NCBI RefSeq assembly: GCF_029227855.1
Contig: NZ_CP074356.1
DNA from: Escherichia coli
GTDB lineage: Bacteria > Pseudomonadota > Gammaproteobacteria > Enterobacterales > Enterobacteriaceae
Length of the DNA: 64,000 nucleotides
Strand: one strand, 5' to 3'
Below are positions 10,645 to 25,996 of the stretch, piece by piece. The notes beneath the pieces were generated by a model. That model was given only the letters and a program-made list of their open reading frames with translations. It ran no database searches and was not told the DNA's origin. The position numbers and the translations under genes are program-made. The stretch's first letter is position 1. Each line of letters opens with the position of its first letter.

Positions 10645-12213
10645 TTAGCGTGCCGGCTGAGTAGTCGTGGAAGACTGCTCAAAGTGATAGCGACCGGTTT
10701 TCAGGCTGCTTGGGCCGAGGCGTGCAAACTTGAACATTAAGAACAATTCTGCCACCAGGAACAGGGTATACAGGCCGCAAATCAGCACCATTGAGAAGAT
10801 GAGATCGCCTGCGGTCAGTGACGAGTTCGCCACAGCTGTCGGCAGCACTTCACCGATAGCCCACGGTTGGCGGCCATATTCAGCCACAAACCAGCCCGCT
10901 TCTACAGCAATCCACGGCAGCGGAATACCGTACAGCGCGGCGCGCAGCAGCCATTTTTTCTCGCCAATGCGGTTGCGGATGACACTCCAGAAAGAGAGCG
11001 CGATGATTGCCAGCAGTAGGAAGCCACACGCCACCATGATACGGAACGCGAAGTACAGCGGCGCTACACGCGGAATGGAGTCTTTGGTTGCCTGTTGAAT
11101 CTGCGCTTCAGTCGCATCAGCCACGTTTGGCGTATAGCGTTTCAGCAGCAGACCGTAACCGAGGTCTTTCTTCATGCTATTGAACTGGTCACGAACCGCC
11201 TGGTCGGTAGAACCAGAACGCAGTTGCTCGAGCAGAGAGTACGCCTTCATCCCGTTACGAATGCGTTCTTCATGCTGCACCATCAGTTCTTTCAGGCCGA
11301 TAACTGGAGTATCCACGGAACGCGTTGCAATGATGCCCAGCGCGTAAGGGATCTGGATCGCAAATTTGTTCGTCTCCTCTTCCTGATCAGGAATGCCGAA
11401 CAGAGTAAAGGCAGCAGGCGCAGGTTGCGTTTCCCACTCGGCTTCAATAGCAGCCAGTTTGGTTTTCTGCACGTCGCCCATTTCGTAACCAGATTCATCA
11501 CCCAGAACAATAACAGACAGAACGGCAGCCATACCGAAGCTGGCAGCGATAGCAAAGGAGCGTTTAGCGAAGGCGAAGTCACGACCTTTCAGCATATACC
11601 ATGCGCTGATACCGAGGATGAACATCGCGCCAGTCACATAACCAGACGCTACAGTGTGAACGAATTTCACCTGAGCAACCGGGTTAAGCACCAGCTCGGA
11701 GAAGCTCACCATCTCCATACGCATAGTTTCAAAGTTGAAATCGGACGCGATTGGGTTTTGCATCCAGCCGTTCGCAACCAGAATCCACAGTGCGGACAGG
11801 TTTGAACCGAGCGCCACCAGCCAGGTGACACACATATGCTGAACTTTACCCAGACGATCCCAACCGAAGAAGAACAGACCTACAAAGGTGGATTCGAGGA
11901 AGAAGGCCATCAGACCTTCGATTGCCAGCGGCGCACCGAAGATATCCCCTACATAGTGGGAATAGTAAGACCAGTTAGTCCCGAACTGGAACTCCATGGT
12001 CAGACCGGTAGCCACACCCAGAGCGAAGTTGATACCAAACAACTTGCCCCAGAACTTGGTCATATCTTTATAAATCTGTTTGCCGGAAAGGACGTAGACC
12101 GTTTCCATAATGGCCAGCAGGAACGCCATACCGAGCGTCAGTGGCACAAAAAGGAAGTGGTACATCGCGGTCAAGGCAAACTGTAAGCGCGACAGTTCGA
12201 CTATATCTAACAT
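10645..12213 (-). CDS. cydA: Cytochrome bd-I ubiquinol oxidase subunit I
   Basis: Starts [28 protein letters not shown]; about 522 aa. Confidence 0.95.
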
Positions 12214-12950
12214 CATGACTCCTTGCTCATCGCATGAAGACTCCGAGAGTGAACCCCGTTAGAAAGGGTCACACGCATGCCCCAATACAAAATTATTTGC
12301 TCGCCTCTATCGTTGCCATTTCATCAAAAGAGGAAAAGACAATGATAAAAAAGTTACAAATATGTTAATGAATAAACCAAATTGATCCCGTAATTATATT
12401 ACGCCGCAAAATCCTTACAATAAACATGTTTTTATTGAGCAAATTTGCATTTTTCGACAGTGATCAATTTATAGCGAAATTGTCACGATCTCACCAATTT
12501 GATCTACGACAATTTATCGTGTTTTGCAGATTTTTTTCAAGAATTAAAAATTGATTTATATCAAAACCAACCAAATATGTTAATTGTGTATAAACCATAG
12601 ATCATTGGTGATTTTATTGTTAATTTATTGTGAAATATTTATGCAACACAATTATTACAATGAAAAGGTATAGATAAAAAACCAGTGTTTTATTTAACAG
12701 AACCGCCTTATCCACTTTTTATAATACCAATTGATTAGATTAGCCAATTTGTTGCTATTTTACATAACATATTTTTATCAAAGTTAATTGATTGTTGCGT
12801 TTATGAGCACCGGCCGTAAGCCCGTTATGTTATTGTTTCATTAGTAATAATCACTTAAATGTATCGATGAAACAGGTATGACTTAGCGGGAGTGATTGTT
12901 TCTGAGTGAACAGAGACCACTTTCGCCTGATAAATGAAAAATGAGCGATT
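12214..12950 (-). promoter_or_regulatory. Long AT-rich cydAB upstream regulatory region
   Basis: About 0.7 kb non-coding AT-rich DNA upstream of cydA; the cyd promoter is known to be complex (FNR, ArcA, H-NS). Confidence 0.6.
12551..12564. promoter_or_regulatory. Consensus FNR binding site
   Basis: TTGATTTATATCAA is a perfect TTGAT-N4-ATCAA palindrome, about 340 bp upstream of the cydA ATG. Confidence 0.6.
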
Positions 12951-13018
12951 TTTGCAAGTTAGTTTTTCTATAGCCGAGTACGCTCAGCGCCTCGCTTGAT
13001 TACAATGAGGTTGCTGCT

Positions 13019-13963
13019 ATGAGTCCTGATAATATCAGTTCTGCTGTCAATCGCTTCTCAGGTTGGCCATCTAATGATCCTCTAAAAACAGATAAAGAAT
13101 CAATGACATCACCCATGACTGTGCAGGTAATAAAGATGATTGCCGCCATCCTTGACCCACATCGGATAGTCGTTGGAATCGATACACTTTATACAACGCA
13201 GCGCGAAACATTTACCTCAGAGAGTCAACAGCTCATTGAATCAGCATTGCAAACACTTCATGTGATGAATTTAAATAACCTGGAAACAAATCTCGATGAG
13301 GAAGGTCACTATCTGGCTTTTGGATATAACGTTGACACTCCTGACAGAATAACCGTTTCTGCTTATAATGAAAAAAAGCCTGGCTGCTATGGCCAATGTC
13401 TTTTAATACAGGATGACGAAACAGACTTATTTAACCTGATAAAAGTTAAAATTTTTGAAGCCAGGCATAATTATGTCGCTCAATTGATGAGCGATCCGGA
13501 ATTTATGTTCAAATTTAGTTATAGCGCTCAACAAAATAGATTAGAACCTCATCTTCTGGTTCCCACTTATTTCCCTCTAAAAACAAACGAACCGGTTACG
13601 CAAGAGGATGTACTGTTACTTTATCGTTTCTTTAAAATGGATGGTGATTTTAATATATTAACATCAGATGAATACATGAGTATCATGACACCTCTAATGA
13701 AGTGTGAGCGTAGCATCCACGACCACAACAGGTATGTGACGGGCAAAGATACCCTTCTTCTGGACTATCCTCCTTCTGGTAACCAGATATATTTCCATAT
13801 TTTTCCTGACGAATCAGCAACACTAGTCCTTTATTTTTCAAACAATGACATTGAATGTTTCGTCTTTGAAAGAGATATTCCGAGCCAGTATCGCTTTTTC
13901 AAAATGTTTACCAATCTGGCACTGGTTATTGATCAGTTAACCGATGCCAATCAAATACTTTAA
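13019..13963 (+). CDS. Hypothetical protein, AT-rich, no recognisable family
   Basis: 314 aa ORF, soluble, no motif I can recognise; codon usage and base composition unlike flanking core genes. Confidence 0.6.
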   Translation: MSPDNISSAVNRFSGWPSNDPLKTDKESMTSPMTVQVIKMIAAILDPHRIVVGIDTLYTTQRETFTSESQQLIESALQTLHVMNLNNLETNLDEEGHYLAFGYNVDTPDRITVSAYNEKKPGCYGQCLLIQDDETDLFNLIKVKIFEARHNYVAQLMSDPEFMFKFSYSAQQNRLEPHLLVPTYFPLKTNEPVTQEDVLLLYRFFKMDGDFNILTSDEYMSIMTPLMKCERSIHDHNRYVTGKDTLLLDYPPSGNQIYFHIFPDESATLVLYFSNNDIECFVFERDIPSQYRFFKMFTNLALVIDQLTDANQIL

Positions 13964-14043
13964 TTTTTATATATTCCCTGTGGCAAATATTGCTAAACAA
14001 TGCCCGGGGATTAATTTTTATTACTCACGGAAAGATTTAAATA

Positions 14044-14466
14044 ATGATCCCATCTCAAATCTCTTTCAACACCCTTCCTGTCAATGCAACATACGCTTCA
14101 GAGACAACAGTTGACACACAAAAATTCTCTGACATCCTCTACTCAGCGGGGTGTTCCCTAAAGGATCTGGCTTATTTGAGCAGATGTCTGGCATCAATAC
14201 ATCCGACTATCGCCAAAAACATTTATGAAACAGAAAATCTCAGCGATCAAAAATTACTACATATTGATTGCCGTAGTACAAATGAAATCAAGATAAATAT
14301 CTTTTTTGGTCGACAACGAGAAGGATTAATTGAAATTAGTTCTGACACAGTCATTTTTTCGATACTGTCTTCATTGATTGACTCCACCATTTCTAAATTT
14401 CAACACCAAAACCCCGTTAACGGTTCTGTAAATCCTGACCTATTGTATGAGGATTATACTGATTAA
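14044..14466 (+). CDS. Hypothetical protein, AT-rich, no recognisable family
   Basis: 140 aa ORF 80 bp downstream of the 314 aa ORF, same strand; likely co-transcribed. Confidence 0.55.
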   Translation: MIPSQISFNTLPVNATYASETTVDTQKFSDILYSAGCSLKDLAYLSRCLASIHPTIAKNIYETENLSDQKLLHIDCRSTNEIKINIFFGRQREGLIEISSDTVIFSILSSLIDSTISKFQHQNPVNGSVNPDLLYEDYTD

Positions 14467-15013
14467 ATCCCTCCTGTCGCGAAAAATGGCCTGCGTTATT
14501 GCCAGACGTAATAAAACTTTTGATTAACGTTTCTCGTACTGGTAGCACCCTCATGTACTTTTCTTTTTTACGAAAAATCAAAAGAGCTAACAAAGGTCAT
14601 AATTCGCATGAATCATTAATTATTTGTTATTTTCAACATTATTTTTACATTAAGCAGAGATGAATTGCAGTGAAATTCGACTTAACTTTTATGAAATGCA
14701 TTTACTCATGGCTAAAGCCACGTCACAAAAATGCAAATTAGAAGTTGATCACAATTATCTCAATACATCAAATCAAGTTAATTTTAAAAATTTAACATTC
14801 ATGACATCAGTTGACATAACACACTGAATTAAAATGAGAATTTGAAAACACACTTTAAACAATCATTTCCCGAAAGACATTTTGAAAATAGATCAATTGC
14901 AACATTACGGTCAGATAAAGACACTCCTGTGATATTAAACCTGTGCCGTTATGAACGGCCATAAATACGACGTGTGTAACTTATTTTACTCTCTGTCTTA
15001 CAAAGGATTACCC

Positions 15014-15463
15014 ATGAAGAAAGCAACACTTGTGATTGGCGTTATTGGCGCGGACTGCCATGCAGTAGGCAATAAAGTTCTGGACCGCGTTTTTAGCAAC
15101 CATGGCTTCAGAGTCATTAATCTGGGCGTAATGGTCAGCCAGGACGAATATATTGATGCTGCCATTGAAACTGGTGCTGACGCGATTGTCGTCTCCTCTA
15201 TCTATGGGCATGGCGATATCGACTGTCTGGACATGCGCGAACGCTGCATCGAGCGTGGACTGGGGGACATCCTGCTCTATGTGGGCGGTAACCTGGTGGT
15301 CGGAAAACATGACTTCGCTGACGTGGAAACCAAATTCAAAGAGATGGGATTTGATCGCGTCTTTGCCCCAAGTCATGACTTAGAAGATGTTTGTCAGCTG
15401 ATGGCCCACGATATCAACCAACGTCATGACGTTGATACTCGTATTCTTGAAGAGGCAATCTGA
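15014..15463 (+). CDS. glmS: Glutamate mutase sigma (S) subunit, B12-binding
   Basis: [21 protein letters not shown]: the DxHxxG cobalamin-binding motif of methylaspartate mutase S; AGGA RBS 7 nt upstream; start chosen at internal ATG of the track ORF. Symbol follows clostridial glutamate mutase usage, not glucosamine-6-P synthase. Confidence 0.85.
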
Positions 15464-16851
15464 TGCAAATCGTCTCTGTCGATATTGGATCGACGTGGAC
15501 CAAAGCAGCCCTCTTCGCCCGGGAGGGGGACGCGTTAACGTTGGTTAACCACGTACTGACCCCAACCACCCCCCATCATCTGGCGAAGGGGTTTTTCTCC
15601 AGTCTGAACCTGGTGTTAAACGTAGATGATGCCCTCCCCCTGTTTAACAGCGGTGAGGTTGCATTGAAGTATTCCTCCTCTGCCAAAGGTGGGCTGGCGG
15701 TTGCCGCAATGGGATTGGTGCCTTCTATCACCCTGGAAACCGCGAAAGTAACCGCTCACTCTGCGGGGGCTAAAATTGCGCAATATTACGCCTACAAGCT
15801 GAACCGCCGTGATATCCAGGCACTGGAAGAAACGCAGCCCGATATTCTCTTGTTCACCGGCGGCACCGACGGCGGAGAAGAAAGCTACGGCCTGAATAAC
15901 GCCCGTGTGCTGGCAGAATCCAAACTCGACTGCGCCATTATTTATGCCGGAAACCGGGATATTCAGGACAAGGTGCAGGAGATCCTAGGGCATAAAGACC
16001 TGACCATCGTCGACAACGTTCTGCCCGATCTTGACCATCCGAACCCTTTAGCTGCACGCCAGGCTATCTGCGACATATTCCTTAAACGCATCGTTAAAGG
16101 GAAAGGGCTGGATGTCGTTGTTGATAAAACAGGCGAAGAACCAATGCCGACACCGTGGACAGTCTTTGAACTGGTTAAGGCAATCAGTAATGTCGATCAC
16201 AGCTGGAAAGAGTTCATGCTGATCGACATGGGCGGCGCAACCACCGATGTCTATTCCGCCTGTGCCAACACGCTCTCGCCCGACACCGTTTTACACGGCG
16301 TACCGGAACCCTTCGTGAAACGGACGGTGGAAGGCGATCTGGGAATGCGCGTCTCGGCAATGGTGGTTGGTGAAAGTGCGAAAGAGTTAGTCAATGTGAA
16401 TTTTGCTCAGCAACCCGCACAGCTGGACGCTTTTTATCATTACCTCCGTCATCTAGTCGCTCATCCCGACTACTTACCCGCGAATTCAGAAGAAAAATAT
16501 TTCGATACCGTCCTGGCCGGACTGTGTGTGGGTTATGCCACCGAAAGACATGCGGGCACCAAAAAAGAGGTCTGCACCTGCGTCGGCAATGTCGATTTAC
16601 AGATGGGACGTGACCTGACAACCGTGCGTAAAGTCGTCGGATCCGGCGGATGGCTCTCGCGTGCCAGTCAGTTCGATATGCATCACTGGTTGAAATACCG
16701 CAAGTTAAACGACGACGGTAAACGCATTCTCTTACCGACCGAATTTGAATATTACCGCGATTCCCGGGGGCTATTACCATTGCTGGCAAACGTCGCCAGA
16801 GTCGATCCGCTGGCCGCCGCGCGCACCAGTATTCAATGCTTAACCCTATAA
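15463..16851 (+). CDS. glmL: Glutamate mutase L component (MutL/GlmL reactivase-like protein)
   Basis: 462 aa ORF between S and E subunits as in clostridial operons; ATGA overlap with the S subunit. Confidence 0.75.
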   Translation: MQIVSVDIGSTWTKAALFAREGDALTLVNHVLTPTTPHHLAKGFFSSLNLVLNVDDALPLFNSGEVALKYSSSAKGGLAVAAMGLVPSITLETAKVTAHSAGAKIAQYYAYKLNRRDIQALEETQPDILLFTGGTDGGEESYGLNNARVLAESKLDCAIIYAGNRDIQDKVQEILGHKDLTIVDNVLPDLDHPNPLAARQAICDIFLKRIVKGKGLDVVVDKTGEEPMPTPWTVFELVKAISNVDHSWKEFMLIDMGGATTDVYSACANTLSPDTVLHGVPEPFVKRTVEGDLGMRVSAMVVGESAKELVNVNFAQQPAQLDAFYHYLRHLVAHPDYLPANSEEKYFDTVLAGLCVGYATERHAGTKKEVCTCVGNVDLQMGRDLTTVRKVVGSGGWLSRASQFDMHHWLKYRKLNDDGKRILLPTEFEYYRDSRGLLPLLANVARVDPLAAARTSIQCLTL

Positions 16852-21327: not shown

Positions 21328-21359
21328 GTAGATGCCTGAATCTCTATTCAGGCATCTAC
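21328..21359 (+). terminator. Perfect 14 bp inverted repeat; candidate terminator or operator between operon and transporter gene
   Basis: GTAGATGCCTGAAT-ctct-ATTCAGGCATCTAC followed by T-rich ttctcctgattctgattt. Confidence 0.55.
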
Positions 21360-25060: not shown

Positions 25061-25093
25061 CTGCGCCTGGCATCCCGCCAGGCGCAGGTTTTA
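25061..25093. terminator. Bidirectional terminator hairpin between convergent cobA-like and LysR genes
   Basis: CTGCGCCTGGC-atccc-GCCAGGCGCAG then gtttta. Confidence 0.6.
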
Positions 25094-25996
25094 CATCTCC
25101 TGCGGTACAACCGATTTCGCCAGCAACCATTCACGAAATTGCTGCAAGTGCGGTGAGTCAGACTTCTCTTCCTGCCACGTCATAATAAAACGATTACCGG
25201 TACGAATAGGCACATCACAGGGGATCACCATATCGCCACTATCCAAATCATGTTGAATAGCGAAACGTGGTAACAGCGCCACGCCGAGATTAGAGCGCAC
25301 GGCGGCAATCAGCATTGAAAGCAAATCGAAACGTGGTCCGTTGTTGACCAGTGGACTGCTAACGCCAGATAAAGCAAACCACTCTTCCCAGCCAGTAATA
25401 CGGGTGCTTTGATGCAGAAGTGGTAACTCAGTAAGCAGTTCTGCCACTGACAGTTTTTGATCGGACATTGCAAGCAAACTGCCGCTGCATACCGGCAAAA
25501 TCTCCTCATCAAAGAGATATTCTACTTCCGCCCAGGGCGCGCAAAAATTTTCGCGCATAATGACAGCATCGTACTCCCGATTAAGAAAATCGCCGTTATT
25601 AGCTAAAGAGTGAATATTAACAATAATATCGGGATGTAACTTTGTGAATTCATGTAAATTTGGGATTAACCAGTGGGTACTAAACGTAGGATTCACGGCA
25701 AGTTCAATAACCTGAACCGTAGGCTGCCAGGTCATAATAGTATTGGTATCGCGTTCCAGCTTATTTAATGTTTCTTTTACTATCCCCAGGTAATACTTCC
25801 CTGCATCATTAAGAAAAATACGTTTTTTAGAGTGTGAAAATAACGGAGTATGTAAAAATTCCTCCAGCGCACTCACTTGTCTGAATACAGCACTTTGGGT
25901 TAACGCTAACTCCTCTGCCGCTCTGGTATAACTTTCATAACGTGCGACGACCTCAAAAGTCACCAGCAGCTCCGTTTTAGGTATTTTTCCTCGCAT
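25091..25996 (-). CDS. LysR-family transcriptional regulator
   Basis: N-terminal HTH (TRAAEELALTQSAVFRQVSALE) and LysR substrate-binding domain; start at ATG 25996 with RBS; divergent from the RtcB-like gene. Confidence 0.85.
   Translation of the reverse strand: MRGKIPKTELLVTFEVVARYESYTRAAEELALTQSAVFRQVSALEEFLHTPLFSHSKKRIFLNDAGKYYLGIVKETLNKLERDTNTIMTWQPTVQVIELAVNPTFSTHWLIPNLHEFTKLHPDIIVNIHSLANNGDFLNREYDAVIMRENFCAPWAEVEYLFDEEILPVCSGSLLAMSDQKLSVAELLTELPLLHQSTRITGWEEWFALSGVSSPLVNNGPRFDLLSMLIAAVRSNLGVALLPRFAIQHDLDSGDMVIPCDVPIRTGNRFIMTWQEEKSDSPHLQQFREWLLAKSVVPQEM

Follow-up and report, generated by a model that had tools for sequence, protein, structure and literature searches.

The gcvTHP operon of Escherichia coli is controlled by GcvA, a LysR-type regulator (LTTR) with a distal and a proximal site, and by a CRP site located far upstream. 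In the benA and catB promoters with their regulators BenM and CatM, a recognition site is found near −64 and an activation site near −43, and classical LysR-type promoters carry the high-affinity site near −65. A divergently oriented regulator gene with an autoregulatory site is common in the LTTR family, but not universal. With respect to the enzymes, the closest described system is the Clostridium glutamate mutase/methylaspartase cluster mutS-mutL-mutE-mal (PMC4682846). The enterobacterial glm cluster encodes the same enzymes in the same gene order, S-L-E-mal, but differs in having its own upstream region, a LysR regulator, and genes for an AtuA-like protein, a DUF4387 protein, a symporter, fumD, and cobO. 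The methylaspartate (mesaconate) pathway of glutamate breakdown is carried by EHEC O157:H7, O145, and O55 and by many opportunistic pathogens, and in O157:H7 no growth condition tried led to expression of the genes (PMC4682846).

The window, which is the whole stretch of 64 kb of E. coli DNA that was analyzed, contains such a cluster in an accessory island adjoining cydA. A gene-free gap of 547 bp (14467–15013) lies directly 5′ of glmS and is followed by glmS, glmL, glmE, the methylaspartate ammonia-lyase gene mal, an AtuA-like gene, a DUF4387 gene, and genes for a dicarboxylate/amino acid symporter, a class I fumarase (FumD), and CobO. Annotation was taken from the RefSeq record of strain JNEC-KY178, which is 100% identical over 12200–15500. 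The features of the locus are as follows.

10645–12216, minus strand: cydA, from the island gene order.
13019–13963: low-GC gene of 314 aa, unannotatable.
14044–14466: low-GC gene of 140 aa, unannotatable.
14467–14607, no strand: AT-rich filler forming the 3′ flank of an E. coli-specific insertion, which E. whittamii, Escherichia sp. E1V33, and all other genera lack.
14608–14734, no strand: Escherichia-specific AT-rich spacer of the ancestral cydA-glmS intergenic region, alignable only within Escherichia, with small ORFs that indels disrupt in other strains.
14735–14758, plus strand: distal block U1, AAATTAGAAGTTGATCACAATTAT, cross-genus consensus AAAATAAGATTnnGATCACAAAnAT (MAFFT alignment and consensus scan).
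14818–14834, plus strand: weaker block U2, AACACACTGAATTAAAA, consensus AACAC-a-TTGAT-t-T-AA (alignment).
14862–14899, plus strand: putative proximal operator, composed of an ATC-N11-GAc dyad (14862–14878) and the invariant 20-mer TTTTGAAAATAGATCAATTG (14880–14899) (alignment).
14897–14902, plus strand: predicted −35 hexamer TTGCAA, with TTG in 45 of 45 loci.
14920–14925, plus strand: GACACT, predicted as a weak −10 and separated from the −35 by exactly 17 nt.
14932 (±2 nt), plus strand: predicted transcription start, a purine 7 nt downstream of the −10.
14933–14938, plus strand: TATTAA at the start of the leader, an alternative, poorer −10 candidate, moderately conserved and without T at position 6.
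14945–14959, plus strand: hairpin GCCGTT-ATG-AACGGC in the predicted leader, lineage-specific.
15003–15016, plus strand: Shine-Dalgarno sequence AAGGA (15003–15007) and glmS start codon (15014–15016), (A/G)AGGAT-N6-ATG in all genera.
15014–15463, plus strand: glmS, methylaspartate mutase S subunit, first operon gene (RefSeq annotation of the 100%-identical record).
25091–25996, minus strand: gene of a LysR-family regulator (GcvA/DsdC subfamily), distal end of the cluster; the protein is a candidate for binding the proximal operator.

Our main reading, to which we give a probability of about 60%, is that the gap controls the glmS-glmL-glmE-mal-...-cobO operon through a LysR-activated promoter and is a composite of two parts. 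Its upstream half (14467 to ~14734) is lineage-specific AT-rich DNA, ~140 bp of which came with the insertion of the two low-GC genes, and the downstream ~280 bp are an old conserved module with a predicted sigma-70-type promoter starting near 14932. A T-N11-A operator would abut this promoter and overlap the −35, with the 20-mer centered at about −43 and a second dyad at about −62. The GcvA-like LysR regulator encoded at the end of the cluster, as the most likely activator, would bind the −62 and −43 dyads in response to an effector. The sites further upstream would supply a second input: U2 near −105, and U1, which is CRP-like, near −186 and at a fixed 142–148 bp from the proximal operator. 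As the −10 is weak, transcription would need an activator, and the silence of O157:H7 under all growth conditions tried fits a promoter that is silent without activator and effector. Our comparisons demonstrate the conservation, the spacing, the single occurrence of the site, and the linkage of the regulator gene, whereas we infer activation rather than repression, the identity of the binding protein, the transcription start, and any contribution of H-NS. The promoter-operator region is of an ordinary activator-dependent type, previously undescribed, and not a new kind of element. Its value lies in the handle it offers on induction of the pathway in EHEC, as the combination of promoter, invariant operator, and candidate regulator makes the inducing signal and the role of the pathway directly testable.

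The gap had been delimited exactly in a sequence-only reading of this DNA: the 140-aa ORF ends at 14466 and glmS starts at 15014. Its statement that ORFs of at least 60 aa are absent also held, as the longest ORFs comprise 58, 55, and 54 aa. These small ORFs were rejected as genes: none had a Pfam match, and indels frameshift them between strains. An ORF of 170 aa starting at 14951 is only an in-frame upstream extension of glmS: the conserved Shine-Dalgarno sequence, the alignment across genera, and the annotation in RefSeq agree in placing the true start at 15014. Of 5426 complete E. coli genomes, 1135 contain the gap with 89–100% identity, and among the E. coli records listed there was no annotated feature within it. 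The RefSeq locus tags leave out one number exactly at the gap (RS20015 to RS20025 in NZ_CP017249, RS07785 to RS07775 in NZ_CP027103), which suggests that a feature formerly called there was later withdrawn.

For comparison we took glmS loci from one genome per species, ~45 loci from ~15 enterobacterial genera, and compared the upstream regions. cydA and glmS adjoin each other divergently, across ~1.2 kb without genes, in E. whittamii, Citrobacter, Klebsiella, Salmonella arizonae and diarizonae, and others. The same direct arrangement was found in Escherichia sp. E1V33, which lacks the segment 14467–14607. The direct cydA-glmS neighborhood elsewhere indicates that the segment ~12860–14607, covering both low-GC genes and the initial ~140 bp of the gap, is an insertion in the E. 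coli lineage. No elements kept across genera were found within 14467–14607, which is also the most variable segment among E. coli strains (8–22% divergence). Together with the adjoining spacer, the first ~270 bp of the gap (to ~14734) are Escherichia-specific filler, and BLAST similarity outside Escherichia was limited to a short block ~110–155 bp before the ATG. Strain divergence within E. coli was 0–1.3% in the last 154 bp, 0.6–6.7% at third codon positions of glmS and glmL, and 4–22% in the upstream gap.

Some further observations concern the surroundings of the insertion. The two low-GC genes (37–38% GC, 314 and 140 aa) have the same orientation, are inserted between cydA and glmS in E. 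coli-type genomes only, and are degraded in Escherichia sp. MOD1-EC7003; their hypothetical products had no family matches in Pfam, NCBIfam, PHROGs, or PADLOC. The cydA-proximal ~640 bp (12217–12860) are common to other genera and to nearly all E. coli genomes (part of the query matched in 5425 of 5426) and represent the conserved cydAB regulatory region, so that accessory DNA starts only past ~12860. Over 14044–16851, comparison with loci L002 to L005 and L029 revealed a mosaic, with 4–22% divergence in the 140-aa gene and the upstream gap versus 0–3% in the promoter, leader, and glm genes. Escherichia sp. MOD1-EC7003 displays the opposite pattern, 2.5–13% in the gap and 27–34% at third codon positions of glmS and glmL. 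The mosaic divergence points to a putative recombination breakpoint near the glmS start.

The gap has a GC content of 32.4%, compared to 50.3% in the window overall and 51% in the operon, with minima of ~25%, and it sits within a 2.8-kb low-GC tract; the strong AT-richness reported earlier was thus correct. Such an AT content (32% GC versus 50% in the window) is compatible with H-NS silencing. One could suppose that the main property of the gap is binding and xenogeneic silencing of its AT-rich DNA by H-NS, combined with anaerobic control through FNR and perhaps a small RNA, and the low-GC tract, the silence of the O157:H7 operon in the laboratory (PMC4682846), and an FNR-like site at 14745–14758 with a perfect TTGAT half would agree with this. 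We regard this explanation as doubtful, because the AT-rich upstream half is not conserved, is partly a recent insertion, and is lacking in genera that express the enzyme (PMC4682846). The FNR-like site, with two mismatches the best in the gap, lies ~180 bp before the predicted start and lacks conservation in its right half; the earlier suggestion of a classical FNR promoter did not hold up. A class II FNR promoter (TTGAT-N4-ATCAA near −41.5) was likewise rejected, as that site is too distant and the spacing of the proximal dyad is wrong: the conserved dyad at the −35 has a 5-N5-5 spacing versus 5-N4-5 for FNR, and read as an FNR site it has mismatches at 3 of 10 positions. Scans with consensus sequences for FNR, ArcA, IHF, NarL, and H-NS gave only weak or unconserved matches. 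H-NS silencing is plausible as a putative additional, E. coli-specific layer on the AT-rich, partly inserted upstream half.

An RNA function of the gap found no support either. The small RNA proposed in the sequence-only reading was not borne out, since there was no Rfam match (cobalamin riboswitch or other) at E ≤ 1 on either strand of 12000–15600, no terminator-like site in a scan of the gap, and no consensus structure, and the small ORFs are frameshifted between strains. The hairpin described in that reading is real, but its loop and length had been given incorrectly: it is GCCGTT-ATG-AACGGC, 15 nt with a 3-nt loop and not a loop of atga, and ends 54 nt before the glmS ATG. In shuffled sequences of 547 bp with the composition of the gap, perfect 6-bp hairpins occurred at a mean of 1.5 per shuffle, and ones with at least four G/C pairs in 1.4% of the shuffles. 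The predicted 82-nt leader, beginning at ~14932, folded no better than shuffled sequences (z = −1.2), and the same was true for alignment-free folding of leaders from 23 lineages (mean z of −0.39). The leaders had no conserved structure, with an RNAalifold consensus of −0.08 kcal/mol and 0 compensatory pairs. Several genera have short hairpins, differing in sequence, at about the same place in the leader; the C. freundii group and Enterobacter have none. The hairpin was rejected as a conserved element, as its sequence is not kept outside Escherichia, a deletion has removed the segment in C. amalonaticus, and no covariation was found; judged by this comparison, it is probably without conserved function.

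The promoter and regulatory sites that had been expected somewhere in the gap could be placed by phylogenetic footprinting in its last ~280 bp, which carry conserved blocks at fixed spacing. The predicted assignment of this last part as promoter and operator is, in our estimate, highly probable. The −35 hexamer TTGCAA, a 17-nt spacer (17 ± 1 bp being expected), and a −10 hexamer having A2 and T6 together bear the marks of a sigma-70-type promoter. Among the glmS loci, A2 and T6 of the −10 were kept in 45/45 and A4 in 44/45; the hexamers have the forms TTGCNN and (G/C)A(C/A)A(C/T)T, and the spacer is constant in length but free in sequence (45 loci). TTGCAA matches the consensus at 4 of 6 and GACACT at 3 of 6 positions, as in a weak promoter. 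In a generic promoter scan no plus-strand promoter with at least 9 of 12 matches was found; GACACT went unreported there because only three of its six positions match. Literature searches by locus tag retrieved no published expression or transcription start data for these genes.

The 20-mer immediately upstream is the most strongly conserved part of the module. Nineteen of its 20 positions were invariant in 23 sequences from ~12 genera, the third base being T or C only, within an alignment whose mean column identity was only 69%. It holds two overlapping T-N11-A boxes, cATTTTGAAAATA (14878–14890) and TGAAAATAGATCA (14883–14895), which appear across genera as TGAAAATAGATCA and (T/c)ATTTTGAAAATA. 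The box TGAAAATAGATCA is a T-N11-A dyad of the LTTR kind, with TGA-N7-TCA in nearly all genera, Yersinia and Hafnia included. The perfect palindrome TATTTTGAAAATA is present in most genera, and a related operator form, CTGAcAATAaATCAATTG, was found in Yersinia, Hafnia, Morganella, and Budvicia. The −35 begins with the final three bases of the 20-mer, so that the operator overlaps this hexamer. A second dyad, ATC-N11-GAT, is located 19 bp upstream of the first one; the positions of the dyad centers, about −62 and −43, are relative to the predicted start only.

The operator occurs once per locus, always on the glmS strand and upstream of glmS, and is unique within the window (42 bits versus 5 for the runner-up). 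No second operator was found elsewhere in the island upstream of the symporter gene, fumD, or the LysR gene. In a metagenome scan with the exact 18-mer, all matches with enterobacterial flanks (15 of 80) were glmS promoters, and the others were chance matches in unrelated low-GC sequences. The single site per window and locus and the metagenome result make the 20-mer look like a dedicated operator, which is confined to Enterobacterales. Partial copies in E. coli (14628–14639 on the minus strand, 14658–14669, and 14838–14850) were considered as extra operators and rejected, as their positions were not conserved over 20 lineages; partial copies were also not enriched in these lineages (17 observed versus 13.9 expected).

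The invariant block might instead be bound by a global or unlinked regulator, such as a CRP/FNR-family protein on TTGA-N7-TCAA, ArcA, or IHF, with the LysR protein of the cluster acting elsewhere. The sequence TTGAA-N5-ATCAA (14882–14896) within the block and the conserved CRP half-site TCACA in U1 would fit such a regulator, as would the ArcA/FNR-controlled cydAB genes next to the operon, the fermentative nature of the pathway (PMC4682846), and the location of the E. coli LysR gene, which is not adjacent to the operator. We consider this possibility unlikely, since the 5-N5-5 spacing of the block fits neither FNR (N4) nor CRP (N6), and the IHF consensus was unmatched at the block in the consensus scan. 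Moreover, the site of a global regulator is not expected to be letter-perfect over 20 bp, and a second copy was absent from the 64 kb and from other enterobacterial contexts among the metagenome matches.

A dedicated LTTR as activator, as assumed in our main reading, has a candidate in the LysR protein of the cluster, which is GcvA/DsdC-like and obtained its highest score with the GcvA subfamily model. This score of 219 bits is below the model cut-off of 288 bits, which rules out GcvA itself. Its orthologues, whose number falls off sharply below ~54–56% identity, occur in the same genera as the operon, and the same LTTR was drawn in enterobacterial clusters by Kronen and Berg in 2015 (PMC4682846). 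Linkage between the LysR gene and the glm genes persists in four different arrangements. At the distal end, the LysR gene converges on cobO, or on fumD in clusters lacking cobO; this is the case in E. coli, Enterobacter, S. diarizonae, and a Pseudescherichia-like contig, on which the operator is present too. In Yersinia it is found 2.7 kb upstream, and in Yokenella it is divergent from a B12-uptake-glm operon. The gene is ~10 kb from the operator in E. coli and not divergently arranged, and no autoregulatory or other conserved motif was found upstream of the LysR genes of seven loci. The better conservation of the dyad at about −43 counts against a LysR protein as binder, and the divergence of the operator parallels that of the regulator but also the species phylogeny and is thus not independent evidence. 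Weighing these points, we give roughly even odds, or a little better, that the LysR protein is the binder of the putative operator.

Judged by regulator subfamily and by the presence of proximal and distal sites, the glm region would most resemble the gcvTHP control region. Shared with gcvTHP are the best score of the cluster regulator against the GcvA subfamily model, a proximal site at about −70 to −35 that overlaps the −35, additional conserved sites ~100–190 bp upstream at fixed distance, one of them CRP-like, and a role in the control of amino acid catabolism. The two differ in that the glm regulator scores below the GcvA model cut-off, its operator TGAAAATAGATCA is unrelated to the CTAAT-type sites of GcvA, a GcvR-like partner or DNA looping is without support in the glm system, and the glm regulator gene lies in the cluster of its target while gcvA is unlinked. 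The likeness to benA/catB with BenM/CatM consists in the T-N11-A dyads at about −62 and −43 from the predicted start, a weak core promoter needing an activator, and a pathway-specific regulator encoded with the pathway genes. In contrast to that system, the E. coli glm regulator gene is located ~10 kb away and convergent with cobO instead of divergent, the invariant glm dyad is the promoter-proximal one and not that at −62, and an autoregulatory site is not detectable upstream of the glm LysR genes.

The distal block U1 contains the CRP-like 16-mer TTAGAAGTTGATCACA (14738–14753), which matches 8 of 10 consensus positions. In 31 of 32 lineages its TCACA core precedes the proximal anchor by 142–148 nt, and its center is at about −186 from the predicted start. 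In the left half TAAGA is conserved, at the place where the CRP consensus has TGTGA. In U2, TG at 14825–14826 is invariant. A more elaborate form of the main reading would be a GcvA-type multi-site switch, in which the LysR protein on the proximal operator and either CRP or a second LysR copy on U1, in helical phase ~144 bp upstream, would act jointly, possibly through looping. Three changes in the E. coli lineage, the two-gene insertion, a diverged left half of U1, and CTGAA in place of TTGAT in U2, could then explain the silence of O157:H7 as opposed to expression in Citrobacter and Morganella. We offer this switch as a speculation that is quite unlikely to be correct as a whole.

In E. coli both U1 (14747–14750) and the 20-mer (14891–14894) contain GATC (Dam methylation) sites. 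These are not kept in the Yersinia group, nor in U1 of Klebsiella or Salmonella, and we read no meaning into them.

The predicted start itself depends on the choice of the −10. Should TATTAA (14933–14938) be the real −10, the start would be near 14945, GACACTCC would be an extra protein site in the spacer, and all positions would shift by ~13 nt, which places the dyads at about −56 and −75. This would bring them nearer to the textbook LysR recognition position of −65, and TATTAA is moderately conserved in the group of Escherichia, Citrobacter, Klebsiella, and Salmonella. Nevertheless, we judge this assignment very unlikely: TATTAA has no T6, degenerates to CATTAT, AGTTAA, and ATTCCA in several genera, has no conserved −35-like element 17 nt upstream, and is not matched by any hexamer at a fixed spacing in the group of Yersinia, Morganella, and Hafnia, whereas the hexamer at +17 keeps A2 and T6 in 45/45 loci. 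Lastly, a constitutive promoter without specific regulator, in which the invariant A/T tract would serve only as UP element and −35, is extremely unlikely. ATATTTTGAAAATA at −55 to −42 does resemble UP elements in the layout of its A/T tracts (matches at ~9 of the 16 specified positions in our own comparison with the published consensus). However, UP elements tolerate much variation and are not expected to be letter-perfect over 20 bp across genera, the −10 is weak, the operon is unexpressed in the laboratory, and a dedicated regulator is kept in the cluster.

Several minor observations were made in the wider neighborhood of the cluster genes. In Yokenella, a cobalamin-uptake operon of the TonB-receptor/FecCD/ABC/BtuF-like type, oriented divergently to the LysR gene, precedes glmS. 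In S. diarizonae, a gene for an AraC regulator with a PocR domain adjoins the LysR gene. A Logan contig (L089) carries a LysR orthologue with 62% identity beside a cob biosynthesis operon and cobA-fumD-symporter genes, with no glm genes within 10 kb. In the window, the 160-bp gap between the DUF4387 and symporter genes contains a perfect 14-bp inverted repeat, GTAGATGCCTGAAT-ctct-ATTCAGGCATCTAC, at 21328–21359, which may be an internal terminator, an attenuator, or an mRNA stability element splitting the operon.
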